Shown here: one piece after another, positions 1 to 17,919 of the stretch
Position numbering within the stretch: position 1 is the stretch's first letter
How the letters are laid out: every line of letters starts with the position of its first letter
DNA from: Candidatus Saccharimonadota bacterium
GTDB taxonomy: Bacteria > Patescibacteriota > Saccharimonadia > CAILAD01 > BJGX01
Direction of reading: 5' to 3'
NCBI GenBank assembly: GCA_046350735.1
Contig: JAXLZU010000001.1
Span: 204,530-268,529 of the forward strand
Length of the DNA: 64,000 bases
Translations under genes and position numbers: made by a program
Notes under the pieces: model-generated
Seen by the model: the letters and a program-made list of their open reading frames with translations, nothing else
The model's database searches: none
What the model was told of the DNA's origin: nothing

Positions 1-13
1 CAGGAAACTATAA

Positions 14-1054
14 ATGAGTAAAGTTTTTGTTGGGCTTTCGGGTGGGGTAGATAGTGCAGTTGCCGCAGCGCTACTTAAAGAGCAAGGCTATGAAGTAACA
101 GGCGTTTACATGAAGAATTGGAGTCGGGATATCGCTGGGTTTCAATGCCCATGGCAAGAAGACTTGTCAACGGCTCGACTCGTGGCGGCACATTTGCAAA
201 TTCCTTTTAAGATTTATGATTTTGAAAAAGAATATTATGAGAGTGTTACACAGTACCTACTCGATACTTACAAGAAGGGACAAACACCAAATCCAGATGT
301 AATGTGTAATCAATCAATTAAGTTTGATGTATTTTACAAACAATGTCGCAGAGACGGTGCAGAGTTTATTGCTACCGGTCACTATGCAAGTATACAAGAT
401 GGGCAGTTACGTACTGCTGCCGACACAAGTAAAGATCAAACCTATTTTCTCTATCGAATGAATCCGAGAATAGCAAAGCATGTTATTTTTCCTCTTGGCC
501 GTCTAAAAAAGCTAGAGGTAAGAAAGCTAGCAAAGACATTTGCGCTCCCTAATTATAACCGACCAGATAGTCAGGGTTTGTGTTTTGTAGGCCCAGTGCC
601 AATGCGAGATTTTTTGAGTGAATTTATTCGACCCAAAGCCGGCAATATTGTAGATGAAACTGGAGAAAAAATCGGCCAACATAATGGGGCTTATGCATAT
701 ACTATTGGTCAACGTCATGGTCTCGGCATAGGCGGTGGCCAACCATACTTTGTTTATGCAATTGATACAAAGAAAAATATTGTGTACGTTACAAGTAATG
801 CAGAGTCAGATTTGCTAAATAAAACTGAGTTTGTAATACGTGACTGTGTTTGGTGGCAACAGCCAAAGCCTAGAGACAAAGGACTGAAAGTGCGAGTTAG
901 ATATCGAAGTAAGACTATCGCATGTACACTTACAGTACTTAATGACACTACTTGGAAAGTTGTATTAGATAGACCCGAGCGAGCGATAGCAGCCGGACAG
1001 TCGGCAGTTTTTTATAAAGGCAATAGTGTATTTGGTGGCGGTATTATCGGCTAA
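14..1054 (+). CDS. mnmA: tRNA-specific 2-thiouridylase MnmA
   Basis: N-terminal PP-loop SGGVDS followed by the conserved MnmA core; 346 aa. Confidence 0.9.
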   Translation: MSKVFVGLSGGVDSAVAAALLKEQGYEVTGVYMKNWSRDIAGFQCPWQEDLSTARLVAAHLQIPFKIYDFEKEYYESVTQYLLDTYKKGQTPNPDVMCNQSIKFDVFYKQCRRDGAEFIATGHYASIQDGQLRTAADTSKDQTYFLYRMNPRIAKHVIFPLGRLKKLEVRKLAKTFALPNYNRPDSQGLCFVGPVPMRDFLSEFIRPKAGNIVDETGEKIGQHNGAYAYTIGQRHGLGIGGGQPYFVYAIDTKKNIVYVTSNAESDLLNKTEFVIRDCVWWQQPKPRDKGLKVRVRYRSKTIACTLTVLNDTTWKVVLDRPERAIAAGQSAVFYKGNSVFGGGIIG

Positions 1055-1086
1055 AAAGTCTATGCTCTTTTACTAAGCATAACCAT

Positions 1087-1983
1087 TTGGCCTATAATAC
1101 TAGTATGAAGACCAGTGATGTTCATACGCGTAATACTGAAGTGCAAGATAAGCTCGACGAAGCTAAGAGTGCTCAATTAACTGCCGATTTACAGAGGTTG
1201 GCAGGTGCTGTAGATACAGCAGATGACGGGCATAAAGATCCTAACAATGGCCCAAATAGTACCGAAAAAGAAAACAAAACCGAGACAGACCAACAGACCT
1301 TAATTGAAGATTTAAAGAAGTTAATTGAGCAAGAATTTGATCAATTGAGAAATGGTATCGAGCGTTACAAGTGGATGCAAAGAGATATAGAGGCGCATAT
1401 TCGCAATATGTTACATATAGTGCATGCCGAACATTCTAGAGATAGCCAAGTAGAGCGAATGGTAGCCCAGGTGGCAATAGATATTGCAGCCACAACTATT
1501 GGCGAAGACATGCAGGGATCGATTTCTCTGAAGGGCTATAGCGAGCAGTTTTTGGCCGAAGTTGACCAGCTTGGCGAAGTGTATCGTTCAAGAGAAGCTG
1601 AGATAGTTGATGCACTCGAGCAAAGCAAGACTGACGAACTTAGTGGTAAACGTGATGCATTTATTGATGAGTTGGTTCGTAAGCCACTAGAACATACAAA
1701 GAGCGCAATGTATTCGACAGATGCTGAGTTGATAAGACTTTTACAAGAGCAAAAACGTACCATTCGTGAAAACTTAAATGCGTTTCAGCAACTCCAGTAT
1801 TTTCAAACTGACGATGTCTGGCAAAACCCAGCTTATCGCTTGTTACAGGAATATTGCGATAAAGTAATTCAAGTTATTAATACCCAGCTGAATAATTTGT
1901 ATAGTCAAACAGAAAGTGATGAAAAGCAAATTGATGGTTTAGCTAGAGAATCGCTATTGGTAATACAAAAAGTGCAAAGCTAA
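1087..1983 (+). CDS. hypothetical coiled-coil protein
   Basis: 298-aa ORF, charged and coiled-coil rich, no TM segment. It sits upstream of the tandem paralogue array. The real start may be the internal Met at MKTSDVH. Confidence 0.5.
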   Translation: MAYNTSMKTSDVHTRNTEVQDKLDEAKSAQLTADLQRLAGAVDTADDGHKDPNNGPNSTEKENKTETDQQTLIEDLKKLIEQEFDQLRNGIERYKWMQRDIEAHIRNMLHIVHAEHSRDSQVERMVAQVAIDIAATTIGEDMQGSISLKGYSEQFLAEVDQLGEVYRSREAEIVDALEQSKTDELSGKRDAFIDELVRKPLEHTKSAMYSTDAELIRLLQEQKRTIRENLNAFQQLQYFQTDDVWQNPAYRLLQEYCDKVIQVINTQLNNLYSQTESDEKQIDGLARESLLVIQKVQS

Positions 1984-1994
1984 AAACTACAAAG

Positions 1995-2660
1995 ATGAAA
2001 AAAGATACAACACCAGACAATCAAAATACTCAAGGAAAAACAGTTGCTATAGTGCTGCTAGTATTGTGTATTGTAGTTGCTTTAGTTCTGAGTTTTTTAG
2101 CATTTAGCTCGCGAGCGCAAGTATTGACTGAATTAAGCGATACACAAAACCAGCTACAAATATCGAGAGATCTTAATGCTCAATTACAAACTCAAGTAGA
2201 AACAATGCGCAGTGCAAATAATAATGCTCAGTATATACTTATTACTGATATGGGCGTGCGTATACCAAAAACAGCAGATTTACAGGATGTAGTAGTTGGC
2301 GTAGAGACGGTTGCTAACCCTAAGCAACCATTTGCGCATTTTACAAGTGCAGAGATTTTGGCAGCAGTAATGAGTAACCCTGCCGGACCATATAGTAGTA
2401 ATCAGTGTGCGCTGGGTGATAGTCCTCTAGGAGTAATTACACGGTACAGCTCTGGTAGTACTGTATATGGCAAAAAAGTAGAAACTATCTCTGATGCTAA
2501 CGTAAAAAAGATAGGTGATTATTACTTTGTATACTCTAACTCTGCCACTTCGTGCACAAGTAATAAGATAGTATCTGACTACATTACCGCACAGCAGCAA
2601 AAATTTGCAGCCGCCTTTGCAAATCTTGAAGCTATTACATCTTCTGTAAATACTCAATAA
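1995..2660 (+). CDS. membrane-anchored two-Cys surface protein, paralogue 1 of 4
   Basis: N-terminal TM anchor and a coiled-coil. The C-terminal domain has conserved C..LG..PLG..KKV...VKKIG..YY.V...C; this domain is shared with 2703 and 4065. Confidence 0.6.
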   Translation: MKKDTTPDNQNTQGKTVAIVLLVLCIVVALVLSFLAFSSRAQVLTELSDTQNQLQISRDLNAQLQTQVETMRSANNNAQYILITDMGVRIPKTADLQDVVVGVETVANPKQPFAHFTSAEILAAVMSNPAGPYSSNQCALGDSPLGVITRYSSGSTVYGKKVETISDANVKKIGDYYFVYSNSATSCTSNKIVSDYITAQQQKFAAAFANLEAITSSVNTQ

Positions 2661-2702
2661 CGTGGTATAATAAGCACAAGAATTAAATAGGAAACCAGCG
2701 AT

Positions 2703-3389
2703 ATGGAACCCCAACAAGTACACCCACAAGCCTCAGGCCTCGAGCCTACTACACAAATGCCAGAATCTAACCCAATGCCACCTAAGAAAGGTGGTAAGGG
2801 CTGGATGATAGTGGCAATTCTTGCCATTATTATTCTTATAGTAGTAAGTGCATTTGGCTATTACAAATGGCAAGCGTATCGCACCAAGGTTGGTGATTTG
2901 GGTGCTCAAGTAAATGCTTTGCAAGCGCAGGTTGATACACTCACTGCTGCGGCAGCATCCACCACTGTCTTAAAGATAAGTGAATTTGGTGTGCAGATGA
3001 CCAAACCAACTGATGCCAAAGATGCCTATTATTATGTCTCGAAAAATGCCGAAGGCAACCAAGTTGCTTCGTTTACCTCGCCTGGTTTACAAAACTTGGC
3101 GGCCACCAACCCATCTACTCCTGCAGTTAGTAACGCATGTGGTCTCAATAGTGCCCCGCTTGGTACAATTACCCAAGTTAAGGCCGGAAGCCTTATTAAG
3201 GGTGTAAAAGTAGAAGATGTTAAGAGTAGCGATACTCTCATTGTGAAGAAGCAAGATGTTTATTACTACGTGTATACAGCACCAACAACACAATGTTCTA
3301 CAGTAAAGACAGTACAAGATTTGCAAACCAAACAAGCCAAATCGCTTCAAGAAAGCTTTAATACTAGCCTAGCAGTCTTGGCAAAATAA
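2703..3389 (+). CDS. membrane-anchored two-Cys surface protein, paralogue 2
   Basis: TM anchor, AQVNALQAQV coiled-coil, and the same two-Cys C-terminal domain (NACGLNSAPLGTI...YYYVY...QCS). Confidence 0.6.
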   Translation: MEPQQVHPQASGLEPTTQMPESNPMPPKKGGKGWMIVAILAIIILIVVSAFGYYKWQAYRTKVGDLGAQVNALQAQVDTLTAAAASTTVLKISEFGVQMTKPTDAKDAYYYVSKNAEGNQVASFTSPGLQNLAATNPSTPAVSNACGLNSAPLGTITQVKAGSLIKGVKVEDVKSSDTLIVKKQDVYYYVYTAPTTQCSTVKTVQDLQTKQAKSLQESFNTSLAVLAK

Positions 3390-3400
3390 GTAGGTAACAA

Positions 3401-4000
3401 ATGAAAGATCAAAACCAAAACACACATCAACCAGTACATAATCCATCAAGTGATCATATTCAGCTTCCCAAAAGAGATAGAGCAAAAACCATTTGGATAG
3501 TAGTAGCAATTATTGCTATTGCAGCACTTATTGGCCTGGCAGCATTTGGATATGTAAAAGTAAAGAATCTCAACAAACAGATTAGCGACCAACAATCGCA
3601 GATAAATGAATTGAATAATACCAAGAAAACACTAGAAGATGCGGCAGCTGCAGCTGCAAGTGCTGCAGCCGCTGCAGCTACAAAAAGTGCTATAAATACT
3701 GTTACTACAAGCGGAACAACAGACACTGCGCTTATTGAAGCTACAAAAAATCATTACATGAGGAATCCTAATATAAAAACTGTAAATGCTACTGTTCAGG
3801 ACAAATCTGGTGATTTTGCGCATGTAAGTGTAAATTTTGGTGAACCAGGTACAAGCAGAACAGCTATTTTTAAAAAAGTGAATAATACTTGGCAGTATAT
3901 TTATGGTGGCACCCAGGCGCCTTGTTCTGATTATGCAGCACTATATGGTCTACCAAGTGGTTGGTATATGGTAGAAAAATGTACAACTACACCGGACTAG
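3401..4000 (+). CDS. membrane-anchored surface protein, paralogue 3 (mosaic)
   Basis: The N-terminus, TM and coiled-coil are nearly identical to 4065 (NLNK.ISDQQ.QINELNNTKKTLEDAA). The C-terminal domain is different and contains two Cys. Confidence 0.6.
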   Translation: MKDQNQNTHQPVHNPSSDHIQLPKRDRAKTIWIVVAIIAIAALIGLAAFGYVKVKNLNKQISDQQSQINELNNTKKTLEDAAAAAASAAAAAATKSAINTVTTSGTTDTALIEATKNHYMRNPNIKTVNATVQDKSGDFAHVSVNFGEPGTSRTAIFKKVNNTWQYIYGGTQAPCSDYAALYGLPSGWYMVEKCTTTPD

Positions 4001-4064
4001 TTTCTATATCTATCTTTTGTTTTTCAAGAAAACTTAATTATTGTAATAATGAACTGGAGTAAAT

Positions 4065-4751
4065 ATGAAAGAAGAAAAAACAGAATTACAAACCGATGAA
4101 CATAATAGCTCAATGCCAAGCAAAAATAATGGCAAAATGATTTGGATAATTGTGGCGATAGTTGCAATTGTTGCACTACTTGGCTCAATAGCTTATGGCT
4201 ACATAAGCATGAAGAACCTCAACAAAAAGATTAGTGATCAACAAGCACAGATAAATGAGTTGAATAATACCAAGAAAACACTAGAAGATGCGGCAAAATC
4301 AGCTGCTTCAGGAGTTGCAAATGCGGTACTGGAAAATAAAGGTACAAGAAATATACCTGAGTTAGGTGTAAAGTATACTGTATCTAGCGATAATGCGAAT
4401 ACGACGTATGCATTTCAGACAGTAGGTGAAGAGAGTTCCAAAGCAATTGGTCTATCGACTACAGATCTAATGAGTACAAACGCAAATGTTATTGGTTCTA
4501 CTAGTGAAAATAAATGTAATGCATATGCAAGTCCTTTGGGCAGAATTATTATGTATAAACCAGGTGTAATTTTATTCGATAAAAAAGTCGAAGATCAAGT
4601 TGGTCCGAATGTGAAGAAAATTGGGAATAATTACTTCGTAAAACAGCCTGCACAATTTGTCTGTTCTGAGAATCCATCGGTTTTTTCACTTATTAAAACA
4701 TTGAATCCGAAAGTTTTAGATTCTATCTTCAATAGTTTACAGGCACAATGA
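4065..4751 (+). CDS. membrane-anchored two-Cys surface protein, paralogue 4
   Basis: The N-terminal half resembles 3401. The C-terminal domain resembles 1995 and 2703 (KCNAYASPLGRI...VKKIGNNYFV...VCS). Confidence 0.6.
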   Translation: MKEEKTELQTDEHNSSMPSKNNGKMIWIIVAIVAIVALLGSIAYGYISMKNLNKKISDQQAQINELNNTKKTLEDAAKSAASGVANAVLENKGTRNIPELGVKYTVSSDNANTTYAFQTVGEESSKAIGLSTTDLMSTNANVIGSTSENKCNAYASPLGRIIMYKPGVILFDKKVEDQVGPNVKKIGNNYFVKQPAQFVCSENPSVFSLIKTLNPKVLDSIFNSLQAQ

Positions 4752-4790: not shown

Positions 4791-4796
4791 TATAAT
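4791..4796 (+). promoter_or_regulatory. extended -10 box TGCTATAAT, 7 nt upstream of the alaS ATG (leaderless or very short leader)
   Basis: Sequence ttgctataattactggcATG. The same motif recurs upstream of many genes in this window. Confidence 0.5.
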
Positions 4797-4803: not shown

Positions 4804-6627
4804 ATGACTACCAGTGAAATTCGTTCTAAATTCTTAGAATTCTTTAAAGAAAAAGATCATCAAATAATTCCATCAGCTCCAGTGGTGCCAGAACATGACC
4901 CGACCGTACTATTTACTACTGCCGGTATGCATCCGCTTGTGCCGTATCTTTTAGGTACACCACACCCTCAAGGTAGACGTTTGGCCGATGCCCAAAAATG
5001 TATTCGCACAACCGATATCGATGAGGTGGGTGACAATACGCATTTAACATTTTTTGAAATGTTAGGTAACTGGAGCCTGGGCGATTATTTTAAGAAAGAA
5101 TCAATTGCTTGGAGCTGGGAGTTTCTTACCAGCAAACGTTGGCTCGGTATTGATCCTCACAAACTCTATGTAACGGTATATGAGGGCGATGGTGAAGTGC
5201 CAAAAGATGAAGAATCTATTGCGCTATGGATAGAGCAATACAAATCTGCCGGTATAGATACTCAAGAAGGAGACAGGATTCTCGCACTTGGGCGAGAACA
5301 TAACTGGTGGGAGCAAGGCGGAGTGGCTACTGGCCCAGCCGGACCAGATACCGAAATATTTTATTATGTAGGCCAAGAAAAAGACCCTAAATTTAGTGAA
5401 GACAATGATGATTTTGTAGAGATTTGGAACAATGTGTTTATGGCGTATCAACGTCAGGCCGATGGCAGCTATAGTGAGCTAGAAAATAAGAATGTTGATA
5501 CTGGCATGGGCTTAGAACGAACCAGTTTTATCTTGCAGGGACTAAATAATGTGTACGACACAGATATGCTTTCTCAAATAAAATCGGCAGTACATAACTA
5601 TGCTGCCGAGGTTAGAGAGCCGAGTTTTGTGGCTACCCATCCAGACACGGCCGAGCGAGCTGAGAGAATTATTACTGACCATAGTAGAGCAATTACATTT
5701 ATGGCGGCTGACGGTGTTGTGCCAAGTAATAAAGACCAGGGCTATGTTATGCGACGTTTGGCACGCCGAGCTATTCGCGAGGCATTGGTAATAGGTATTC
5801 AGCACGATCTCTTTGCTCGAATTGTTCCACGTGTGGTTGCTCTCTACGAAGATGAGTATCCAGAGTTAGGAATCAATCAAATACAAATTATGGAAGTGCT
5901 CAAACGCGAAGAAAATGCGTTTAGGCAGACACTTACTCGAGGTCTAAAGGAATTCGAAAAACTTCTTACTAATAAAAAAGAACTTGATGGCCATACCGCT
6001 TTTACGCTATATGACACCTATGGTTTTCCAAAAGAACTCAGTCTTGAGGAAGCTAAGCGGATTAATCTTTCTATCTCAAAATTATTTGAGGCCGAGTTCG
6101 ATCAGCAATTAGAGGCCCAACGCAGTAGAAGTCGTAGTGCTACTGCTGGACAATTTAAAGGTGGGCTGGCCGATAATAGCGAAATTGCCACGCGCTACCA
6201 CACCGCAACACATTTAATGTATAAAGCTTTACGCAATGTGTTGGGTGACCATGTAATGCAGAGGGGAAGTAATATTACCGCCGAGCGTATGCGGTTTGAC
6301 TTTAGTCATGGCGAAAAAATGACGCCTGAGCAAATCAAACAAGTAGAAGATATGGTAAATGAGCAGATTGCCAAAGACCTACCAGTAACGTTTACCGAGA
6401 TGAACAAAGACAAGGCATTTGAGGCTGGAGCTCTGGGTGCCTTTGGTGAAAAATATCCAGATACAGTAAAGGTATATACTGTCGGTGATCCAGAAGGAGA
6501 TTATTACTCTAAAGAAATTTGTGGTGGCCCGCACGTAAGTAAAACGTCTGAGATAGGCAAGTTTAAGATAGTAAAAGAAGAGTCGAGCTCGGCCGGCGTA
6601 CGGCGTATAAAAGCAGTTATAGAATAG
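4804..6627 (+). CDS. alaS: alanine--tRNA ligase, short form lacking the C-Ala domain
   Basis: Class II catalytic core, HxxxH editing motif (HTATHLM) and CGGPHV zinc site. The ORF ends after the editing domain at 607 aa. Confidence 0.9.
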   Translation: MTTSEIRSKFLEFFKEKDHQIIPSAPVVPEHDPTVLFTTAGMHPLVPYLLGTPHPQGRRLADAQKCIRTTDIDEVGDNTHLTFFEMLGNWSLGDYFKKESIAWSWEFLTSKRWLGIDPHKLYVTVYEGDGEVPKDEESIALWIEQYKSAGIDTQEGDRILALGREHNWWEQGGVATGPAGPDTEIFYYVGQEKDPKFSEDNDDFVEIWNNVFMAYQRQADGSYSELENKNVDTGMGLERTSFILQGLNNVYDTDMLSQIKSAVHNYAAEVREPSFVATHPDTAERAERIITDHSRAITFMAADGVVPSNKDQGYVMRRLARRAIREALVIGIQHDLFARIVPRVVALYEDEYPELGINQIQIMEVLKREENAFRQTLTRGLKEFEKLLTNKKELDGHTAFTLYDTYGFPKELSLEEAKRINLSISKLFEAEFDQQLEAQRSRSRSATAGQFKGGLADNSEIATRYHTATHLMYKALRNVLGDHVMQRGSNITAERMRFDFSHGEKMTPEQIKQVEDMVNEQIAKDLPVTFTEMNKDKAFEAGALGAFGEKYPDTVKVYTVGDPEGDYYSKEICGGPHVSKTSEIGKFKIVKEESSSAGVRRIKAVIE

Positions 6628-6635
6628 CTAATAAA

Positions 6636-6661
6636 ATGAAGCGAGCCCCTGCGGATGCAGG
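6636..6661. terminator. bidirectional hairpin gagcccctgc-ggat-gcaggggctc between alaS and the convergent high-GC gene
   Basis: Perfect 10-bp stem. A T-rich tract (ttcattttatt) follows when read on the minus strand. Confidence 0.45.
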
Positions 6662-6698
6662 GGCTCTGAGGTGGACGCCACGTCGGCGTTTGGTCGAG

Positions 6699-7217
6699 TC
6701 AGGGGAGAGGGAGACCGTACTGGAGTCCCTCGGTGCTGACGCAGGTGGCAGGGGCCGAATCCTGCCTTTCGAAGGGCACGGCCTCGAAGGAGGCGATGCC
6801 GAACGACTGCCCGTCGTCGCTGACCAGGACAGGGGCGGTGCACCTCTTCTGCTGCACCTCACCCTGGGTCCAGGTGGCGACGAGCTGATCACCCTTGTAG
6901 GTGACGCTCATCGACACGAGCGGCCCGACACCCGGGTCGGTGTCGTTGAAGCGTGCCCGGAGGACCGCTTCGGCCTTGACGCGTGTCATCTCCCTCTCTG
7001 CCTCGCCGTTGTCACCGCGCGAAGCGATGAAGGCGACGAGAGCCACGACGACCACCACGGCGGCGATGACGAGCACCCACGTGTTGCGGGTGTTCTTCTT
7101 CGCCTTGCCGCGCTGCGGCTCGGGCTTCGCCTTGGCGGGTGTAGGGCCGGTCGGCTGGTTGATGGTACTGGTCACTTCTGACCTCTTTCCTCTCGTTCTA
7201 CGATGGAACATTAGCAT
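6699..7217 (-). CDS. high-GC (about 65%) membrane-anchored two-Cys protein, paralogue of the adjacent low-GC gene 7375..7941
   Basis: Basic N-terminus, one TM, and an extracellular domain. It shares AERE...CTAPV...DD...AVPFE...C with its neighbour. Start taken at MLMFHRR (start codon 7215-7217); the six-frame ORF extends to 7280. Confidence 0.55.
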   Translation of the reverse strand: MLMFHRRTRGKRSEVTSTINQPTGPTPAKAKPEPQRGKAKKNTRNTWVLVIAAVVVVVALVAFIASRGDNGEAEREMTRVKAEAVLRARFNDTDPGVGPLVSMSVTYKGDQLVATWTQGEVQQKRCTAPVLVSDDGQSFGIASFEAVPFERQDSAPATCVSTEGLQYGLPLP

Positions 7218-7374
7218 TATACGCCACAAACATAATAAAGTCAATACTTTTTGACAATTTATTTTAGCTAAATAAAGCAATAAAAAGATATTATTATCAG
7301 TACTATATTAACAATTATTAACAAATAAAATACCCACATCTCTTCGATGTGGGAAAATTGTTTATAGACTCTAT

Positions 7375-7941
7375 TTAATTAGCACCCAAACCTGCTAATG
7401 ATACTGTGGCTACACACTTATATCGAGAAGTTGCTAAGTTTTCGAGCGGAACCGCATCAACTCTATCTACCCAGTAGAGATTGTGTTGATCATCGGGTGG
7501 GTTAACCGGAGCGGTGCAATGAGCATTGCCCTGTGAGAAGCTTACTTCCATAGGGCTGCCAAAGGGATATTGTACCGTAACACTATCAATATCAACTTGG
7601 TTATTGCTTGGTAACTTCTGATTGAGAATAGTTGCGTAGGCTTTTAGCTCACGCTCAGCCGTAGTGCGGTCTAGCTCGTGACGATACGTCAACCATATCA
7701 AAGTAACAATGCCCACCAGTAAAAGTGTAATCAGAATAGAAATACCGGCTGTAACAAAGCTAGAGCCTCTCTTTGCAGCCTTCTTGTTACTTGCAGAACT
7801 GGGTGTCTGGCTGGGCAAAACACCAAAATCACGTGCTTCCACGTGCTGGCGTGCCAACTCGCGCTCTTCATCGGTTAATAGTCGCCTACTTGCTTGCAGA
7901 CTATGCTGCTGAATATCAGCAACTGCTTGCTCTGTGCTCAT
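7375..7941 (-). CDS. membrane-anchored two-Cys protein, native low-GC paralogue
   Basis: 188 aa: cytoplasmic N-terminus, TM, and a C-terminal domain with CTAPV...AVPLE...KCVA, homologous to 6699..7217. Confidence 0.6.
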   Translation of the reverse strand: MSTEQAVADIQQHSLQASRRLLTDEERELARQHVEARDFGVLPSQTPSSASNKKAAKRGSSFVTAGISILITLLLVGIVTLIWLTYRHELDRTTAERELKAYATILNQKLPSNNQVDIDSVTVQYPFGSPMEVSFSQGNAHCTAPVNPPDDQHNLYWVDRVDAVPLENLATSRYKCVATVSLAGLGAN

Positions 7942-8016: not shown

Positions 8017-9297
8017 CTATACCGAGAGAGTACGACTGAGTCGCTGTAAGATATTTTCGCCTACCGAGTCGCTACCAACAATATCGAGTGCCAAGTTGGC
8101 GAGCCCCATTGGTGTAATATCTTGTGGACTAGTAAGCTCGCCAGTACTATCAATTACCCTGTTTACTTCTTTGGGTTTTACAAAATCTACCGTCGGCTTG
8201 CGAGTAAAGGGCAGACCTTTATACCAATTTTCGTGCGTTAGGGCTTCTTTAATTTCTGGCAGTGCAGAGCCACCTCCACAGAGCAGAATACGATTTGGTA
8301 GGTGCTCTAAATTATCAAATTCACCAAGAGCCAACTCTACACCACTTATCCAGGTCTGAGCATCATTTTTTAGAGCTTCACTAACTTCTTTTTCTTTCTT
8401 AGCCTCTAGCTTGCCAGCAGAATGATCGAGCTTAAGTTTTTCGGCTGAATCGAATGTTATACCGAGGCTGGTTGCAATACGTTTGGTAAAGCTACGCCCC
8501 CCAATGGCAAACATCTGCGTGCCCTCGACGCCACCATTATTGACAACTGCTATATCGCTTGTACCGCCGCCAATATCAATAAATATAGCCGAAAACTCTG
8601 TACTGTCATCTGCACCAACACTTTTGGCTACAGCAAATGGCTCGGCTGCAATATTAACAAGGTTGAGATCTAAATCGGCTGCAACGGTTTGTAAGGCCCC
8701 CAAGTGCACCATTGGTGCAAAGGCGTTAAAAATTTGGATAGTAACGTCTTTACCCTGAAACCCAACTGGGTTAGTTACTCTATAACCATCAATATGCACA
8801 TCCACGACCGCCGCATTTACTAGCTTTACTTCTAGCTCTTTTTTGCCAGTTTCCCACATCAGCTGCTTGCGCACTTCTTCGTACGCTTGTTTTTGTATGC
8901 GCCCTATTATATCCATCATCTCGGCTTGGTCTATTTTTACATCTGGTCTAGCACGCCGATAACTCACACTAGTCGTACCACCTTTAACAAGCTCACCAGC
9001 AATACCAAGTACAGCGTCTTTGGCAACAATCTCGGCCATTTCTTCGGCTCTACGCAGGGCGGCATCGCAGTTTTCTACTACGCCGGCAATATCTGTTACA
9101 GCGCCACCTGCCATATCTGTTAGACGTTGTCGTTGACGGCCAACACCAATAACCTCTACTACTTGATAGGCTTTACCAGCAGAATCGGTATGTTCTTTTA
9201 CCTGGCCAATGAGTGCCTTGGCATATTCAGTGCCAATATCGAGCGCTACCAAATATTGGCCAGACTTTTTCTTTTTGGTAAATCCTGGCAATTTCAT
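8017..9297 (-). CDS. ftsA: actin-like ATPase, probably cell-division protein FtsA
   Basis: ALDIGTEYAKALIG phosphate-1 motif and DIGGGTSD phosphate-2 motif of the Hsp70/actin fold; 426 aa, FtsA-like length. Confidence 0.55.
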   Translation of the reverse strand: MKLPGFTKKKKSGQYLVALDIGTEYAKALIGQVKEHTDSAGKAYQVVEVIGVGRQRQRLTDMAGGAVTDIAGVVENCDAALRRAEEMAEIVAKDAVLGIAGELVKGGTTSVSYRRARPDVKIDQAEMMDIIGRIQKQAYEEVRKQLMWETGKKELEVKLVNAAVVDVHIDGYRVTNPVGFQGKDVTIQIFNAFAPMVHLGALQTVAADLDLNLVNIAAEPFAVAKSVGADDSTEFSAIFIDIGGGTSDIAVVNNGGVEGTQMFAIGGRSFTKRIATSLGITFDSAEKLKLDHSAGKLEAKKEKEVSEALKNDAQTWISGVELALGEFDNLEHLPNRILLCGGGSALPEIKEALTHENWYKGLPFTRKPTVDFVKPKEVNRVIDSTGELTSPQDITPMGLANLALDIVGSDSVGENILQRLSRTLSV

Positions 9298-9372
9298 AGA
9301 TATATTGTAGCGCTTATGCTGCTAGTTGACCAGTCGGGAAGGTTTTACACTTTGCTGTGTTTTTGATATAGT

Positions 9373-10323
9373 ATGCGCGTATCTAGACCTGTCAAAGGGG
9401 GTAGAGGCACCTTGTCGAATCGGTCAACCTCACAATCTACCAGAATGCAGAGGCTGGTGTATTTTCCGAGCCTTCATGGCAAAGAAAGTACATTGGTAGT
9501 TCCGTTTAAGTTTATTTTCGAAGTAATTGCCAAACTTACAATTTGTTGGTGGGCGTTACCATTAACATGGGTAGGCGAGAAAACACGACAGAATTGGCTT
9601 GTAATACTTATTAAGCAGATCCCAAATGCGCTAAGCTTTGTACGTATTATTGTTACGCCCTACATCTGTGTAAGGCTGGTAATGTATATCGCTAACAATA
9701 ACCATAGTAGTGCAGAAAACTGGTTTTTCTTGTTAATGTTGGTTATTAGTCTCGATGCACTTGATGGCCCCGCTGCCCGCGACCTCGATGCAGTGAGCGA
9801 GTTTGGAGCGCGGCTTGACCCTGCGAGCGATAAGTTTTGCTTTACCTTAATTGTACTGAGCTATTGTGTCGCTAGCTTGTTTGAATACAGTGTGGCATTT
9901 TGCGCCGTGGCAATTGGCCTGGCTCTGTGGTGTTTGCATGTAGAACTAAAGCTTATTAGGCTCTCAGTTGGGCCATTTAGACGTTTGTTGATAGTTCTCA
10001 AAAGCTACGATCCTGAATTTTCCGACCCAGGAGCGTTTATCTCGGGTAAGATTAAATTCAATCTTCAGGTTGCTGCCTGTGCTATTGGCTGGGCTGGTCT
10101 TATCTGGTTTCCGGCAGACCCGACAGCCATCTTACTGATGGTGATTATCTTGTTTGCTGCTCGTAGCTTTGGTGACAAGTCGCTAGGTATGCACAGGCAA
10201 GAATTTGCGTGGTTGGCAGTGGTAGCAATAATTTTGCAAAACTCGACTGGTTTAAAAGAAATAACTTCTACCGACTCAGATGAGCCGCCAGGCAACGTGT
10301 ATCCAATTCGTAAGCCTGCTTGA
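9373..10323 (+). CDS. CDP-alcohol phosphatidyltransferase (PgsA-like); true start probably downstream of 9373
   Basis: IPNALSFVRI N-terminal signature and D-G-x2-A-R...G...D-x3-D motif (DALDGPAARDLDAVSEFGARLDPASDK). Multiple TM segments. Confidence 0.6.
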   Translation: MRVSRPVKGGRGTLSNRSTSQSTRMQRLVYFPSLHGKESTLVVPFKFIFEVIAKLTICWWALPLTWVGEKTRQNWLVILIKQIPNALSFVRIIVTPYICVRLVMYIANNNHSSAENWFFLLMLVISLDALDGPAARDLDAVSEFGARLDPASDKFCFTLIVLSYCVASLFEYSVAFCAVAIGLALWCLHVELKLIRLSVGPFRRLLIVLKSYDPEFSDPGAFISGKIKFNLQVAACAIGWAGLIWFPADPTAILLMVIILFAARSFGDKSLGMHRQEFAWLAVVAIILQNSTGLKEITSTDSDEPPGNVYPIRKPA

Positions 10324-10460
10324 GGCCTATTACTCCGAGAACATCTCGGAGTTTTTATTTATGCCTCTTTTTTTACGTCACATCAAAATGCTCAAGCTAG
10401 TTATTTTGCGTAGGATAGTCTCTGCAAGCGTAAGACGTTTGCGCTATAATAAATATAACT

Positions 10461-12116
10461 ATGTCCGAAGAACATACACCAGATATTATTTACCTCGAAG
10501 CTGATAGCGAAATTACCGAAGCTATCGATAAGTTTAAGGCTGCCAAGGCTCATGAGGTGCGCGTGGCTGTACCTGCTCGTTCTACACTCTTGCAGAGCGC
10601 GGTTAATATTAAGCTATTTAAAAAAGCTGCCGAAAACAATAAGAAGAAATTGGTGCTTATTAGTAATGATAAAGCCACCCTTAGCTTGGCAGCAGGTCTT
10701 GGTGTACTGGTGGCCAAAAACGTCAAAGCCGAGGCGGCTATACCAGAGGCACTTACGGGCTCTATAGGAGAAAAGGCTGCAAACGAGCCAATTGTTATAG
10801 AACAAGAAAATCCACCAGAAGGGTCTACTAGCCAAAAAGGCAAAAAAGCCAAGCAGAGTAATAGTTTTCAAAAGCAACACATTGCCCTAGACGGTGAAGA
10901 CACTAAAACCGAAGAAGCAGAAAACTCTCAGCATCAACCCGTTGCTAGTCACCCTGCCAAAGAAAAGAAAGTGCCAAATTTTGGCGGTCTTAACAAGAAA
11001 ATATTCTGGATAGTTGCCGGTATCGGTGCCCTAGTGTTACTAATACTCGGCTATATATTCTTACCAACTGCCAAGGTGGCACTAATAGCAAAAGCACAGA
11101 AAACACCAGTAAACCTCAAGTTTACTCTCGATGCAGGTACAAAACGTTCGGATTTTTCTAGCGGTGATGTTGCGGCCGATACTATCTCTACTACAAAAGA
11201 AGTAAGTGGGCAGTTTAATGCTAGTGGTAAAAAAGACGTAGGCACCAAGGCAACCGGCAATATTACTATTAAGAACGCAGCTAGCTCGAATGCTATTAGT
11301 TTGCCTGCCGGAACAACGGTTGTCTCTGACGGTAAGGGCTTTACAACTAATCAGGCAGTTAGTGTTCCTGGGGCATCTGTTTCTGGTGGCCAAATAGTTC
11401 CTGGCACTGCCAATGTGGCAATTACCGCAACTCAAAGCGGCGATAGTTATAACTTTGGCAGCGCCGCCTTCTTGGTAAATGGCTATAGTGGCCTTACAGC
11501 TACCGGTTCTACAAGCGGCGGTGTTTCTAAGACTGTTACTGTAGTTACACAGGCAGATATAGATAAGGCTCAAAAAGCACTCATCGAAGATGCTACCAAC
11601 AATGTCAAAACTGAGTTGCAAAACAAAGCTGGTGATAATGAGTATGTCTTTGAACAAACACTTACCACCGAGGCAACATCGGTATCTAGCTCGGTTCCGG
11701 TTGATAGCGAGGGGAGTATTGTTACACTAACAGCTCAAATAAAATTCTCAGAGCTCGCTGCTAAAAACTCTGACTTAGATGAGTTGTTTAGAACCCAGAT
11801 ACAAAGTAAGGTGCCAGGGGGTAACGATATCTACCAAAGCGGTGCGAGCGATGCTACATATACCCTCGTAAAGAGTTATGGCGCAGACAAAGCTGACATG
11901 GCGGCTAGTAGTAACGCATTTTATGGGCAAAGTATAGACAAAGACCAAGTAGCCAAATCGATAGCCGGTAAAAGCAAAAAAGATGCTGCCGACATTATTA
12001 AACCTATCTATCCACAAGTAACCCAAGTATTGGTTGAGACGAATCCATGGTTAAGTCCTAATCTGCCATTCTTTGCTAATCGAATTAAGGTAGAAATTAG
12101 AGTCCAGACAGACTAA
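10461..12116 (+). CDS. hypothetical membrane-anchored protein with a large Ser/Thr/Gly-rich ectodomain
   Basis: 551 aa: cytoplasmic N-terminal domain of about 180 aa, one TM (IFWIVAGIGALVLLILGYIFL), then low-complexity S/T/G-rich ectodomain. Confidence 0.55.
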   Translation: MSEEHTPDIIYLEADSEITEAIDKFKAAKAHEVRVAVPARSTLLQSAVNIKLFKKAAENNKKKLVLISNDKATLSLAAGLGVLVAKNVKAEAAIPEALTGSIGEKAANEPIVIEQENPPEGSTSQKGKKAKQSNSFQKQHIALDGEDTKTEEAENSQHQPVASHPAKEKKVPNFGGLNKKIFWIVAGIGALVLLILGYIFLPTAKVALIAKAQKTPVNLKFTLDAGTKRSDFSSGDVAADTISTTKEVSGQFNASGKKDVGTKATGNITIKNAASSNAISLPAGTTVVSDGKGFTTNQAVSVPGASVSGGQIVPGTANVAITATQSGDSYNFGSAAFLVNGYSGLTATGSTSGGVSKTVTVVTQADIDKAQKALIEDATNNVKTELQNKAGDNEYVFEQTLTTEATSVSSSVPVDSEGSIVTLTAQIKFSELAAKNSDLDELFRTQIQSKVPGGNDIYQSGASDATYTLVKSYGADKADMAASSNAFYGQSIDKDQVAKSIAGKSKKDAADIIKPIYPQVTQVLVETNPWLSPNLPFFANRIKVEIRVQTD

Positions 12117-12517
12117 TGGCGGGTTATTTAGCGTTTGACTACGGAAGCCAAAGAATTGGTGTTGCGATGGGCGGGGGAAAACTTGGGAGGCCACAAGCAC
12201 TGACAATTATTCCTAACGACCAGTATAGTATTAGTACTATCCAATCACTTATTAAAGAGCATAATCCTACAAAAATTATCGTTGGGTTGCCTCATAATCT
12301 AGATGGCGAAGAAACTAACCAATCTATAGAGTGTCGTAACTTTGCTCGCCAGCTTGAGGCATTTAATAAGCAAGTGGTTTTGTATGACGAATCTCTATCT
12401 TCGCAGCGGGCTGAGCATCGCTTAGGTTCGTTATCGATACGTAAAAAAAAGCGACAACTCGATGCTCTAAGTGCACAAATAATTCTCGAGGACTACATAG
12501 CTCATGCAACCAAATAA
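12116..12517 (+). CDS. ruvX: putative pre-16S rRNA nuclease / Holliday-junction resolvase-like YqgF (RuvX)
   Basis: FDYGSQRIGVAMG N-terminus and IIVGLPHNLDG motif. Confidence 0.8.
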   Translation: MAGYLAFDYGSQRIGVAMGGGKLGRPQALTIIPNDQYSISTIQSLIKEHNPTKIIVGLPHNLDGEETNQSIECRNFARQLEAFNKQVVLYDESLSSQRAEHRLGSLSIRKKKRQLDALSAQIILEDYIAHATK

Positions 12518-13598
12518 TCATCATCAAATACCGCCACATACTCCTAGCCCAAAACTGCCAGAAGACAAGTCTGCGCAGTCTAGCAAGAAGGAATTAAGAA
12601 AAACTCCCTTGTGGCTACTTGTATTGCTTGGTGTTTTTGGGGTAATTACGGCGGTATTTGTAGCTGGCATTATTTGGCTTTTTTCGACGGTCTATGCAGT
12701 CAGAACCAATGTCTCGGTAAATGGCCAGATTTTTGAGGTAAAAAAAGGTGAAAGTATCAGTGAGATTGCCAATGAGCTGGCTCAACAAAGTCTAATAGAC
12801 AATCCCAACGCATTTGTGCTCTATGCCAAGTTAGGGCCGGCACATGGCCGGCTTATTCCTGGGCCGTATCTTATTCGCCCATCAAGCTCAATTGCATCGA
12901 TTGTAGGCGATATGAGTAGTGGCAGGATAGCGCAGAACAAAATTACGTTTCCAGAAGGTATAACCATGGCCGATATGGCAACCCGGTTTGCTAACGCTGG
13001 TTATGGCAGCAAAGAAGAGTATCTTTCGGCGGCCAAAAGCTTGGCGACAGATTATAGCTTTATTCCTGCTAGTGCTAAGGACAACCCAGAGGGCTACTTG
13101 TTTCCTTCTACCTATACATTTATACCCAACAGAGGTGCTACCGAGCTTGTAAAAAAACAATATGAAGCCTTTAATAGCGAGATGGTACCATTACTCCAGA
13201 GTAAGCAAGTTGCTAATCTTACGCCTAACCAAGTATTAACCCTAGCTTCTATTGTTGAGAAAGAAGCCCTAACTGAAAAAGACAGAAAGCTTGTTGCGGG
13301 AGTATTTTTGAATCGTCTTGCCAAAGGTATGAAATTTGAGAGTGATGTAACGGTAAATTATGCTACTGGTAAGAAAATCACCTCGCCAGCAGATTTAAGT
13401 GTTAATTCACCATACAACACGTATAGGATAGTTGGTTTACCACCAACCCCTATTAACAATCCAAGTACAGATAGTGTAGAAGCAGTGCTAAATTATACTC
13501 CTAACGACTATATTTTCTTTATTGCTGGTAATGATGGGGTGGTATATTATGCCAAAACATTGTCAGAACACAACCAAAATATCAAAAATCACCTATAA
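12504..13598 (+). CDS. mltG: endolytic murein transglycosylase MltG (YceG family)
   Basis: N-terminal TM and LTLASIVEKEA...VFLNRL signature. Confidence 0.8.
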   Translation: MQPNNHHQIPPHTPSPKLPEDKSAQSSKKELRKTPLWLLVLLGVFGVITAVFVAGIIWLFSTVYAVRTNVSVNGQIFEVKKGESISEIANELAQQSLIDNPNAFVLYAKLGPAHGRLIPGPYLIRPSSSIASIVGDMSSGRIAQNKITFPEGITMADMATRFANAGYGSKEEYLSAAKSLATDYSFIPASAKDNPEGYLFPSTYTFIPNRGATELVKKQYEAFNSEMVPLLQSKQVANLTPNQVLTLASIVEKEALTEKDRKLVAGVFLNRLAKGMKFESDVTVNYATGKKITSPADLSVNSPYNTYRIVGLPPTPINNPSTDSVEAVLNYTPNDYIFFIAGNDGVVYYAKTLSEHNQNIKNHL

Positions 13599-13914
13599 AA
13601 CAGCATTTTATGCTTTTATATAAGCAAAAAAATGCTCTTGCACACCGCTTTTCTTCGTGCTAGTATAGGCAACGTACTCTTTCTAAGGATAAGCATTTAG
13701 CTCTAGATTATGGTTTGTGAGCTTATCTTTGAAAGCGTTCCTGCAAATACCTTATCAGCAGAAGGAAAATAGAACAGTTTACCTGTTTTGAAAGATTAAT
13801 TAATAAGGTCGAATTTCCTGGTTCCAAAGCAAGCTTTGGAAGACGATAAGCTGCAGCGATTTCTCATCTCTTACGAAACGATGGGAAAGGGAGAATTTTA
13901 TTCGTAAAAAAGTA

Positions 13915-15105
13915 TTGGGATTGCCCCTACAAGTGCGCAGTGAATCTTTCACAAGCGTGGGGCAGCAAGATCAGCTCTCTAAAACAAACAATCCCAACCA
14001 AATAAACGCAGATGCTTCGGATCCATTGCCGAAAGCCTCTGCTGTAGTTGACCCCAAAAACCGACTCTTCTCGAGTCTTGGTAGCAACAGTAAAACCAAA
14101 AATCGCAAAAAACTGCACGTATCATCACGCTATGTATTGCACGCCGCATTTATTGTAGGTGTTGTTTTGGCTGTTGGTGCAGGTAAAGTACAATCTCAAG
14201 CTGGCTTAGTCTCGGCTAATAGTGACACACCACTCGATAAGACATCTATGATTACTACAGGTGCTGTACTAGCCCAGAGCTCGGTAAGTCTGGTTAACTC
14301 AGATCTTAATCAAGAAGCCAAAACCATCAACTCACAAACCACGATGGCAACAGCAGGAAACGAGTTCTTACAGAAGGGCCAACCAGTATTAGTAGGTAGC
14401 CAAAGCCGCGATATTACTACGTATGCTATTCAGAATGGTGATACTCTTAGCAGTATTGGCCAGAAGTTTAATATTACTACCGATACTATTAAGTGGGCTA
14501 ATAATATTACTGACGAAAACAGTATTAAGCCTGGTGATAAAATTGTCATTTTGCCGGTATCGGGTGTACTCTATACTGCTACTGGCGGAGACGATTTGGT
14601 AGCTGTAGCAGCTCGTTATCAGGCCAATGTAGCACTGATAGATAGTTTTAATAACTTAGAAGGTAAATCGCCTGTAGCTGGGCAGAAATTAGTTATACCA
14701 GACGGTGTTATTGCAGCTCCTGCCCCTGCTGTAGCAAAGACAACTGTTGCTACTACCAGCCCTACACCAACAAACGTTATTACTGGGTTTCATGGTGGCG
14801 GCGGTAGCTCGAGCAATAGCTACTCGTATGGATACTGTACTTGGTATGTTGCTACTCGTCGGTATGTTCCTCCTTTCTTGGGTAATGCCAATCAGTGGCC
14901 AAGTAATGCTCGCCGTGCAGGGATGAGTGTGGGTAACTCTCCTGTAGCGGGTGCTGCTGGTGTGTCTCGATATGGCAACCATGTTGTTTATATCGAACGT
15001 GTAGAAGGTGGAACAGTCTTTTATACCGAGATGAACGGCCCTGCTGGATGGGGACGCGTTAACTCTGGTACTGCTTCGGCCGGCAACTTCATCTACGTTT
15101 ACTAA
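13915..15105 (+). CDS. secreted peptidoglycan hydrolase with two LysM domains and a C-terminal CHAP domain
   Basis: LysM repeats (YAIQNGDTLSSIGQKF...; YTATGGDDLVAVAARY...) and CHAP core GYCTWYVA...H. Start uncertain. Confidence 0.75.
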   Translation: MGLPLQVRSESFTSVGQQDQLSKTNNPNQINADASDPLPKASAVVDPKNRLFSSLGSNSKTKNRKKLHVSSRYVLHAAFIVGVVLAVGAGKVQSQAGLVSANSDTPLDKTSMITTGAVLAQSSVSLVNSDLNQEAKTINSQTTMATAGNEFLQKGQPVLVGSQSRDITTYAIQNGDTLSSIGQKFNITTDTIKWANNITDENSIKPGDKIVILPVSGVLYTATGGDDLVAVAARYQANVALIDSFNNLEGKSPVAGQKLVIPDGVIAAPAPAVAKTTVATTSPTPTNVITGFHGGGGSSSNSYSYGYCTWYVATRRYVPPFLGNANQWPSNARRAGMSVGNSPVAGAAGVSRYGNHVVYIERVEGGTVFYTEMNGPAGWGRVNSGTASAGNFIYVY

Positions 15106-15115
15106 TAAAATTATT

Positions 15116-15146
15116 AAAAAACCCACTTTGATCCGTGGGTTTTTTG
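15116..15146 (+). terminator. rho-independent terminator (acccac-N8-gtgggt-TTTTTT) after the LysM/CHAP gene
   Basis: Hairpin plus T-run at 15141-15146. Confidence 0.6.
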
Positions 15147-15174
15147 TAATAAAAAAGCAGATCTTTAGGATCTG

Positions 15175-15540
15175 CTACGCATCTTCGCTAGCGAAAGAGT
15201 GTCTAAGAGCTGAATTTGCCCAGCCGGCAATTGTTTTAAACTTTGCAAGAGTCATTACCACATCTCCGTCTTCATTAATAAAGAGACTTCCGTCATTTCC
15301 GGGTCCATTAGGTAAACCGCCACAGGCACGTAGGAATGCTTGAGCATTCTCAGCAGAAAGAAACTCACCACTTCCTGTAGGCCAAGCAAAAAAGTGATCA
15401 CCGTGCAGTTCAGACTGGTCGTGTCCAGCCCGTTTAGTACAGTATCTTCCATGCGGTAATTCTGGATGAAATAGTTCGAGGCAAGTTGAATCAATATATT
15501 CTTGAGACACATATTTCATATCTGGTTGGCGTTTTGCCAT
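15175..15540 (-). CDS. hypothetical protein
   Basis: 121-aa ORF with its own hairpin/T-run terminator (15151-15175 on the minus strand). Confidence 0.45.
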   Translation of the reverse strand: MAKRQPDMKYVSQEYIDSTCLELFHPELPHGRYCTKRAGHDQSELHGDHFFAWPTGSGEFLSAENAQAFLRACGGLPNGPGNDGSLFINEDGDVVMTLAKFKTIAGWANSALRHSFASEDA

Positions 15541-15605
15541 CGATACTCCTTTAGGGTGCGAACAAAACTGTAGAAATTATAATATTACTATGCTATAATG
15601 TCAAT

Positions 15606-17416: not shown

Positions 17417-17431
17417 ACTTATGATTAGACT

Positions 17432-17641
17432 ATGGAAAAACGCGAACATAAGAACACTGCAGCTAGCCAGTTCTTTAAAGAAGGCAAAGAGCTACAAGCA
17501 CGCGATATAGCCCGAAGCGCTCACTACACCTATCGTGATGGGTTTAGACTGGGCCTTGGTATATTTATTGGTTTTTTGGTTGGCGCATTAGCACTTGTAC
17601 TTGTTGTCTATCTACTCAATCTTCTCTTACGGCTTATCTAA
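17432..17641 (+). CDS. small hypothetical membrane protein
   Basis: 69 aa with a C-terminal TM helix. Confidence 0.3.
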   Translation: MEKREHKNTAASQFFKEGKELQARDIARSAHYTYRDGFRLGLGIFIGFLVGALALVLVVYLLNLLLRLI

Positions 17642-17710
17642 TTGTTAAAACAGCTATTTTCTGATAGAATTATTGCGTTCTAGAAACAAAAAAGTTTTCA
17701 TAAAAATTAC

Positions 17711-17787
<77 letters not shown>

Positions 17788-17919
17788 GCAATCATATACA
17801 AGGTACACCAAACAGGCGCTCACTATTCGTAGTCGGACGCCTTTCTATTTGTGTGTAGGGATTTGGCTGTTTGTCAAACGACCAGCTGTTTGAGACAATA
17901 CATAACATAAGCAATATCT

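Follow-up and report, generated by a model that had tools for sequence, protein, structure and literature searches.

Organization of the locus

The 64,000-nt stretch of DNA analyzed here, referred to as the window, is part of contig JAXLZU010000001.1 (positions 204,530 to 268,529) from a Candidatus Saccharibacteria metagenome-assembled genome (MAG). Between mnmA and alaS it contains an array of four consecutive, intact open reading frames (ORFs) on the forward strand, termed g1 to g4, which are tightly packed with spacers of 11-64 nt and whose positions are exactly those given for four same-strand genes in an earlier first-pass annotation made from the sequence alone. Each protein is predicted to have a short cytoplasmic tail, a signal-anchor transmembrane (TM) helix, a helical or coiled-coil stalk, and one extracytoplasmic domain, which belongs to one of two types termed CTD-A and CTD-B (C-terminal domains A and B). 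The arrangement of modules listed in Table 1 shows g3 and g4 sharing an N-terminal module (N-module) that is joined to different ectodomains, and some strains of the same species carry in their place a single in-frame fusion of the two genes lacking 649 bp.

Table 1. Features of the array and its immediate flanks, in window coordinates
Feature	Position (nt)	Strand	Description	Basis
mnmA	14-1054		Upstream of the array	
CC298	1087-1983	+	Acidic, all-helical ORF without TM segment, preceding the array	
g1 (U0516_01105)	1995-2660	+	Hypothetical protein in GenBank; 221 aa; TM aa 17-35; helical stalk; CTD-A aa ~82-221 (nt 2238-2657); Cys138/Cys187	
g2 (U0516_01110)	2703-3389	+	Hypothetical protein; 228 aa; TM aa 34-52; helix 33-85; CTD-A aa 89-228 (nt 2967-3386); Cys146/Cys198	
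g3 (U0516_01115)	3401-4000	+	Hypothetical protein, 100% identical; 199 aa; α-type N-module with TM aa 31-49, 4-heptad coiled coil and Ala-rich linker; CTD-B aa ~106-199 (nt 3716-3997), cystatin/NTF2-like in the model	
N-module repeat, copy 1 (g3)	3485-3657	+	173 nt, 78% identical to copy 2, spacing 649	Repeat search
Crossover interval AGATTAG	3579-3585 in g3 = 4228-4234 in g4	+	Site of the switch in the hybrid gene	Three-way alignment and site table
649-bp segment	3586-4234	+	3' part of the g3 N-module, CTD-B, spacer and 5' part of the g4 N-module; missing in strains L004-L006 of the same species	
36-nt identical stretch, copy 1 (g3)	3611-3646	+	Encodes LNNTKKTLEDAA	Exact string match
g4 (U0516_01120)	4065-4751	+	Hypothetical protein; 228 aa; β-type N-module with TM aa 25-43 and coiled coil; CTD-A aa 96-228 (nt 4350-4748); Cys151/Cys200	
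N-module repeat, copy 2 (g4)	4134-4306	+	Counterpart of copy 1	Repeat search
36-nt identical stretch, copy 2 (g4)	4260-4295	+	Counterpart of copy 1	Exact string match
alaS	4804-6627		Downstream of the array	

Shared modules of the four proteins

Pairwise BLASTP over the C-terminal domain relates g1 to g2 (36% identity, E 1e-22), g1 to g4 (E 4e-13) and g2 to g4 (E 5e-12), with identities in the range 31-36%. The C terminus of g3 matches no other array protein in the same comparison, and hhalign of CTD-A against CTD-B returns a probability of 1.4%, i.e. the two domains are unrelated. This agrees with the first-pass annotation, which had placed one domain in the genes at 1995, 2703 and 4065 and another in that at 3401, and the pairwise alignments of the array proteins lie well beyond chance (E 5e-12 to 6e-26). 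The shared ectodomain is, however, ~135 aa in length rather than the ~100 aa first estimated, and the two cysteines described as conserved in every protein are invariant in the g1/g2/g4 domain only, those of g3 varying among its homologues.

The N-terminal 92 aa of g3 and g4 are 57% identical (E 6e-26), and the DNA encoding the N-module is 78% identical between the two genes. The earlier description of these halves as near-identical is therefore overstated, identity being complete only over 12 codons. The window contains this 36-nt string at exactly two places (0 expected in shuffles); its first copy had been placed correctly, and the second lies 7 nt away from the position originally reported (4267-4302). 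The N-module comprises the TM segment and ~4 heptads ending in the motif LNKxISDQQAQIxxLxNxKKTLEDAA, after which an Ala-rich linker leads into the ectodomain.

A single strong hydrophobic segment (hydrophobicity score KD19 > 2.8) follows a hydrophilic N terminus of 16-33 aa ending in Lys/Arg in each of g1 to g4, in keeping with the short N terminus and one TM helix per protein proposed at first. AlphaFold2 (AF2) models have a continuous helix running through and beyond the TM segment, spanning residues 33-85 in g2 and 27-102 in g3; in g2 the predicted local distance difference test score (pLDDT) of this helix is below 50 over most of its length and its packing against the domain is not confident. 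Beyond the TM segment, heptad periodicity is significant in g3 (24 of 2000 shuffles reach the observed value) and g4 (2 of 2000). The proteins are predicted to be single-pass and signal-anchored with an N-in/C-out topology, which would display the C-terminal domains outside the membrane on short helical stalks, and it is plausible that the paralogues form hetero-oligomers, perhaps through the TM and stalk segments.

Recombination between g3 and g4

Loci L004 (JGI), L005 (Logan) and L006 (ENA) are from the same species, being 98.7-99.7% identical to the window from mnmA to ftsA, and carry only three array genes, the third of which is an in-frame g3-N::g4-C hybrid (P0025, 233 aa). In blastn against these loci, window positions 1-3657 and 4141 onward both align at ~99% and overlap by 166 nt in the locus, so that L004-L006 are without exactly 649 bp, a length equal to the repeat spacing. 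The three-way alignment of the hybrid with g3 and g4 places the switch within a short interval, with diagnostic sites up to 3578 being g3-like (two match neither parent and none is g4-like) and all sites from 3586 on being g4-like. The hybrid is thus the product of one in-register crossover within the AGATTAG interval, where only 7 nt are identical between the g3 and g4 of the window, ~25 nt upstream of the 36-nt tract. The recent recombination or gene conversion suspected in the first-pass annotation is borne out by this hybrid, by the absence of the 649 bp with its single parental switch, and by the occurrence of all combinations of N-module and C-terminal domain among relatives.

The four-gene allele recurs in an independent NCBI assembly (GCA_964570715.1; L015/L016), and Logan read sets L017 and L018 contain the part of it from the 3' end of g3 to g4, their contigs starting at window positions 3789 and 3905. 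These occurrences bear on whether the mosaic is an assembly artefact, the source being a MAG and metagenome assemblers being able to jump at repeats, or alternatively a set of decaying pseudogenes. Such an explanation deserves hardly any weight. The four-gene allele is present in two independent NCBI assemblies as well as in part in the two read sets, 10 contigs carry the hybrid, among them three from JGI, Logan and ENA(+Logan), and the 7-nt identity at the switch is too short for a k-mer jump. The ORFs are all intact, g1 and g2 are under purifying selection, and a gene order in which a CTD-B gene with N-module lies between two CTD-A genes with N-modules is also found in the distant loci L013 and L014. 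Scans of metagenome contigs for a degenerate junction pattern and for the 36-mer gave no matches.

A further discontinuity is seen in L015, a second assembly from this species. Its identity to the window is 99.6% between mnmA and the g4 end, drops to 89.5% over alaS and the neighboring gene m1, and returns to 98.5% from window position 7269. The divergent stretch covers L015 6407-9103 against window 4804-7323, with ~62 extra nt between g4 and alaS. This is a second mosaic boundary, located exactly at the g4/alaS junction, and indicates that the neighborhood is recombinationally active.

Variation of the array among relatives

The same position between mnmA and alaS holds the array in 13 further loci, namely L001-L011, L013 and L014; L012, a contig of 1.9 kb, stops within the array and is left out of the synteny count. 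The comparison of copy number and order in related genomes suggested in the first-pass annotation gives a fixed slot with a content of one to four genes. With A denoting a CTD-A gene, NA an N-module joined to CTD-A, NB an N-module joined to CTD-B and N(α)A the hybrid, the window has the order A, NA, NB, NA and L004-L006 have A, NA, N(α)A. The remaining loci contain A, NA, NB (L008), A, NA, NA (L001), A, NA (L002), NA, NA (L003), NA, NB (L007 and L011), NB (L009), NA (L010) and NA, NB, NA (L013 and L014). The N-module has two subtypes, α (g3-like) and β (g4-like), and across different genomes each subtype occurs with CTD-A as well as with CTD-B. The presence of all four subtype-by-domain combinations is a signature of repeated module exchange.

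The ORF CC298 precedes the array in most relatives, and a divergent helical ORF is found at the same position in L003, L009 and L010. It is 43% identical at the amino acid level to its counterpart in L001, where alanyl-tRNA synthetase (AlaRS) is 86% identical, and its ratio of non-synonymous to synonymous divergence (dN/dS) is 0.18-0.22. No family match was obtained for CC298 in Pfam, NCBIfam, PADLOC or PHROGs, and across g1-g4 and CC298 these searches returned only sub-threshold TM/coiled-coil matches. CC298 could act together with the array as a cytoplasmic partner, or be no more than a neighbor that evolves fast.

Structure and distribution of the ectodomains

The AF2 model of the g2 CTD-A (residues 89-228) has a pLDDT above 90 and a β4-α-β3-α arrangement in which the last helix is 20 residues long. 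The structure prediction of the C-terminal domain that had been proposed as a check is therefore confident, and Foldseek of the g2 model retrieves no fold at E < 0.001 from PDB or BFVD. Both cysteines are invariant throughout alignments A2, A3 and A7 and most likely form a disulfide. With profiles A2, A6 and A7 as queries, the PDB sequences yielded no match below E 0.04, no family was found for CTD-A in Pfam-A, NCBIfam, PADLOC or PHROGs, and no Pfam family covers the domain in 78 full-length relatives or in 45 isolated CTD-A segments. The statement in the first-pass annotation that no known family is recognizable holds throughout these resources, and literature searches found no description of the family.

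A CTD-A profile search of 1.84 billion cluster representatives retrieves 677 proteins at E <= 1e-3, 159 of them at E <= 1e-10. CTD-A is a widespread, uncatalogued Patescibacteria domain and not an orphan. Exactly two cysteines are present in the domain in 139 of 144 retrieved distant representatives, and 127 of the 144 have a hydrophobic anchor or signal segment upstream. Some distant proteins are fused to PG_binding_1, Big_7, TIG, PsbP_2 (PsbP-like), PD40 or SH3_3, partners that would place CTD-A outside the cell, and the domain thus has the pattern of an extracytoplasmic module. The g4 CTD-A has few close relatives, the nearest non-self sequences being 53-58% identical and numbering only three among the 78 family members compared.

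Two distant CTD-A proteins, P0153 (325 aa) and P0240 (190 aa), have the canonical start of a type IV pilin, G↓FS(V/I)(I/V)E. P0153 contains two tandem CTD-A copies and scores 20.2 bits against Pfam N_methyl (cut-off 21.2). In other Patescibacteria, a pilin helix can thus apparently carry the same ectodomain.

The g3 CTD-B is modeled by AF2 as one helix (H108-120) placed on a curved four-stranded antiparallel sheet, with pLDDT values of 80-88 from an alignment of 8 sequences only. The best Foldseek matches are cystatin-fold designs (probability 1.0, TM-score 0.59 on the target, E 0.03, not significant), DUF4783 and NTF2-like proteins, and there is a weak full-length match to NCBIfam NF051431 (Rv0361_Cterm) at 14.9 bits against a cut-off of 37. 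The modeled helix on a four-stranded sheet would liken CTD-B to small cystatin/NTF2-like membrane-anchored domains (the Rv0361 C-terminal domain, DUF4783), but neither the Foldseek nor the NCBIfam score is significant. The Cys residues of CTD-B are not conserved among its homologues (alignment A5).

Evolutionary rates within the array

Pairwise Nei-Gojobori dN/dS values against L008, the nearest related lineage, are comparative only since dS is ~1 and near saturation; they amount to 0.035 for g1 and 0.045 for g2, compared with 0.025 for alaS, 0.035 for ftsA and 0.054 for mnmA. The corresponding value is 0.38 for the whole of g3, made up of 0.16 in the N-module and 0.45 in CTD-B, which is only 31% identical at the amino acid level to its L008 counterpart where AlaRS is 95% identical. 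Amino acid identities to L008 and L001 are 92% and 82% for g1, 92% and 90% for g2, and 95% and 86% for AlaRS. Non-synonymous divergence raised above the housekeeping level is absent in g1 and g2 and present in g3 and the g4 slot only. On these sequence comparisons the array consists of two slowly evolving core members (g1 and g2) and one or two fast or replaceable members (g3 and g4).

The rates divide the proposal of the first-pass annotation that these are diversifying surface proteins, which fits the fast g3/g4 slot and fails for g1 and g2, both as slow as housekeeping genes. In its full form, with all four genes being surface adhesins or host-interaction factors whose variation is driven by positive selection, the proposal is rather doubtful. 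It draws on the predicted surface display, on the variation of cassettes and copy number between strains and species, on the very fast evolution of CTD-B and the third/fourth slot, and on the scarcity of relatives of the g4-type CTD-A. The pilin N terminus of two distant CTD-A proteins suggests fiber display, and the Patescibacteria in cultivation, for the most part Saccharibacteria, live attached to host bacteria as epibionts (PMC10633639). Against this, the dN/dS values and orthologue identities of g1 and g2 are in the range of alaS, ftsA and mnmA, strains are as similar in the array (99.2% identity) as in its flanks, and dN/dS is below 1 even in CTD-B. No repeats, LPXTG motif or known adhesin domain were found in the array proteins in the Pfam and NCBIfam scans.

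In-frame chimeras and copy-number variation arising by recombination between neighboring paralogues, a feature of diversifying arrays, are nevertheless present at this locus. At the DNA level a close parallel is provided by the mrp-emm-enn cluster of M-like genes in Streptococcus pyogenes and by similar surface-protein arrays, which form in-frame chimeras between neighboring paralogues in a similar manner. Adjacent paralogues with a conserved module give rise there, by unequal or in-register recombination, to deletion-fusion hybrids and copy-number variants within a species. The likeness does not extend to the proteins: no sequence or fold relation is known, the array proteins are anchored by an N-terminal TM segment rather than a C-terminal LPXTG motif, the variable part of the array is globular rather than a fibrillar coiled coil, and two of the four array genes are not variable.

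Comparison with known bitopic protein families and pilins

The array proteins resemble FtsB, DivIC and FtsL (PF04977) in having a predicted N-in single TM segment immediately followed by a short leucine-zipper coiled coil and in occurring as paralogous partners. Each protein has one TM segment, and a long helix follows it in the g2 and g3 models, with significant heptads in g3 and g4 only. They resemble PilN/PilO and GspL/GspM in having a cytoplasmic tail, a TM segment, a coiled coil and a small α/β extracytoplasmic domain, again as tandem paralogues. The array proteins could accordingly be regarded as divergent bitopic scaffolds of a conserved envelope machine, either analogues of FtsB/DivIC/FtsL in the divisome or of PilN/PilO/GspM in the alignment complexes of pili and secretion systems, which form hetero-oligomers by TM and coiled-coil pairing. 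Besides the common layout and the tandem arrangement, such a role is suggested by Pfam DivIC matches at E < 0.01 in 51 of 78 family members, by one JGI homologue named FtsB and several with precomputed PF04977 matches, by the strong purifying selection on g1 and g2, and by an ftsA-like gene 3.3 kb away.

A scaffold of this kind is nonetheless unlikely. The DivIC scores of the window proteins are under the Pfam gathering score (20.2 bits for g4 compared with 28.9), the best E value among the relatives is only 8.2e-6, and MapZ, FliL, HemX, GspM and the Rz spanins match equally weakly, indicating a generic TM and coiled-coil similarity. The N-module profile retrieves no FtsB, FtsL, PilN or PilO chains in the PDB search, Foldseek of g2 finds no PilO, GspM or FtsQ-like fold, and no pil or dcw genes are nearby. 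The 135-aa disulfide domain is foreign to FtsB and FtsL, and the number of genes varies between strains.

Membership of the individual families was rejected. For FtsB/DivIC, whose members have ~100-130 aa and a short C-terminal tail, the array proteins are about twice as long (199-228 aa) owing to a globular C-terminal domain of 95-140 aa, which contains the Cys pair or is cystatin-like, the profile is below the gathering score, and the flanking genes are mnmA and alaS in place of a division cluster, the ftsA-like gene lying on the other strand. For PilN/PilO/GspL/GspM, T2SSM and GspM score a marginal 18-19 bits, where 27.8 and 60 are required, matches are seen in only 3 of the 78 relatives, PilO and GspM chains are not in the Foldseek list of g2 against PDB (nothing at E < 0.001), and the locus has no pilM, pilB or pilC context.

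Type IV pilins would have in common with the array proteins, as modeled, a long N-terminal helix with a hydrophobic start, a β-sheet head and a Cys pair near the C terminus. The g2 helix is modeled with 53 residues, a pilin-like length, and leads into a β-sheet head with the conserved Cys pair; one JGI homologue is annotated PilE, there is a weak NCBIfam match to a prepilin peptidase-dependent protein (E 0.004), and the canonical signal is present in 2 of 144 distant CTD-A proteins. It is very unlikely, however, that g1 to g4 are atypical pilins or pseudopilins that prepilin peptidase cleaves and that build a fiber. The class III signal (Gly at -1, Phe/Met at +1 and Glu at +5) was scanned for and pilin identity rejected, the G(-1)/F(+1)/E(+5) motif being absent from all 4 window proteins and all 104 close homologues. 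The long hydrophilic leaders (16-33 aa) have no conserved Gly, there is no N_methyl match, and the g2 helix is modeled at low confidence without confident packing on the domain. Pilins are not known to have the terminal 20-residue helix of CTD-A. No pilB, pilC or pilD is found within 10 kb, and the ten ORFs at 8017-23078 comprise ftsA-like, pgsA-like, ruvX, yceG, LysM-CHAP, obg and methyltransferase genes and three without a confident family, with no pilus assembly genes among them.

Proposed mechanism of array remodeling

The interpretation moderately favored here is a lineage-specific array that encodes modular single-pass envelope proteins with N-in/C-out topology and is remodeled by recombination between stalk modules. 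The architecture and the recombination, two components of this interpretation, are together very probable. In the proposed mechanism the array occupies a fixed slot between mnmA, with the fast-evolving helical protein, and alaS, where g1 and g2 form a conserved core under strong purifying selection and the last slot or slots (g3 and g4) are variable. The shared stalk module would act as a built-in homology arm, in-register recombination deleting, inserting or swapping ectodomain cassettes. Since the stalk module is common to the paralogues, cassettes could be swapped without breaking the frame. The 649-bp polymorphism turning g3+g4 into g3N::g4C would represent one such event. Saccharibacteria are described as naturally competent (PMC10187176), and natural transformation may help the exchange of array segments between strains. 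The ectodomains may serve as binding modules for an envelope or host-surface ligand, a role that is possible but tentative.

Several observations weigh against this interpretation or limit its precision. Two to four Lys/Arg precede the TM segment within 15 residues and a similar number follow it, so that the positive-inside rule does not discriminate for the N-in topology. Heptad periodicity in g1 (189 of 2000 shuffles) and g2 (327 of 2000) is suggestive only and not significant, and the coiled coil assigned to every protein in the first-pass annotation is therefore firmly supported in g3 and g4 only. The contrast in rates between g1/g2 and g3 is drawn from near-saturated dS values. With only 7 nt of identity at the switch, the event is not exactly reconstructable from the two copies in the window, and the real parental sequences or heteroduplex repair must have differed somewhat from these copies. 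Deletion rather than insertion of the 649 bp is the simpler reading because of the NA-NB-NA order in the distant L013 and L014 and the A-NA-NB order in L008, the closest other lineage. No fold or sequence match in PDB, BFVD or Pfam suggests a ligand or activity for CTD-A.

A more far-reaching version would have CTD-A as a new Patescibacteria-specific, disulfide-stapled fold that recognizes a host-surface or cell-wall ligand, and the mnmA-alaS array as a cassette system in which natural transformation and intragenomic recombination, with the stalk modules as built-in homology arms, swap ectodomains and so alter attachment. This version is speculative and carries a low probability. The favored array of recombining modular envelope proteins is an undescribed family, yet it is a variant of a familiar theme, that of modular envelope or surface proteins reshuffled by recombination.

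Saccharibacteria and other Patescibacteria live attached to host bacteria, and their envelope proteome is mostly uncharacterized. CTD-A, with 677 representatives and no domain or structure entry in the resources searched, offers a concrete target for structure determination and ligand screening. Near-identical strains differing by one in-frame cassette fusion constitute a natural experiment on reshuffling in reduced genomes, and the slow g1 and g2 beside the fast g3 and g4 provide a guide to candidates for core envelope and strain-specific interaction functions. If the proteins are ordinary scaffolds, the value is limited to annotation.

Neighboring genes and sequence features

Promoter and terminator scans of the locus gave no signal above shuffled background. 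An extended -10-like sequence, TGGTATAAT, is located at 2663-2671 in the g1-g2 spacer and a TATAAT at 4791-4796, 8 nt ahead of the alaS start; each hints at an internal promoter, with the caveat that the scan as a whole is at background level.

The gene m1 (6699-7280, reverse strand) has a G+C content of 60-68% in a genome of 40-43%, with a spike at 6700-6999 and a third-codon-position G+C (GC3) of 0.85 in its C-terminal half compared with 0.22-0.36 in g1-g4 and alaS. Three lineages share the anomaly (L001 9300-9761, L008 8508-8990 and L005 6272-6853), and the composition suggests either a high-GC organism as donor or strongly biased conversion. The m1 protein is TM-anchored, its ectodomain contains two Cys, and it is paralogous to m2 (7375-7941; 29% identity, E 4e-7). 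Long antisense ORFs at 6636-7181 (forward) and 6617-6892 (reverse) are by-products of the m1 composition, and the GC-rich ectodomain of m1 had no tblastn match among plasmids. A second G+C-rich stretch at 18001-20000 (52% compared with ~41%) lies inside an ORF at 17920-20229 encoding 769 aa with no confident Pfam match.

A bacterial alanyl-tRNA synthetase usually has ~870 aa. The enzyme encoded by alaS has 606-607 aa and is composed of tRNA-synt_2c and tRNA_SAD without the C-terminal region, as are its orthologues in L001-L003. The FtsA-like actin-fold gene at 8017-9297 (reverse strand) matches Pfam FtsA at 62 bits and PilM_2 at 27 bits, the latter at the cut-off, and is 91-96% identical at the amino acid level in relatives. 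It is not followed by ftsZ; instead, the genes for the bitopic, two-Cys proteins m2 and m1 come next downstream on that strand, which recalls the order pilM-pilN-pilO.

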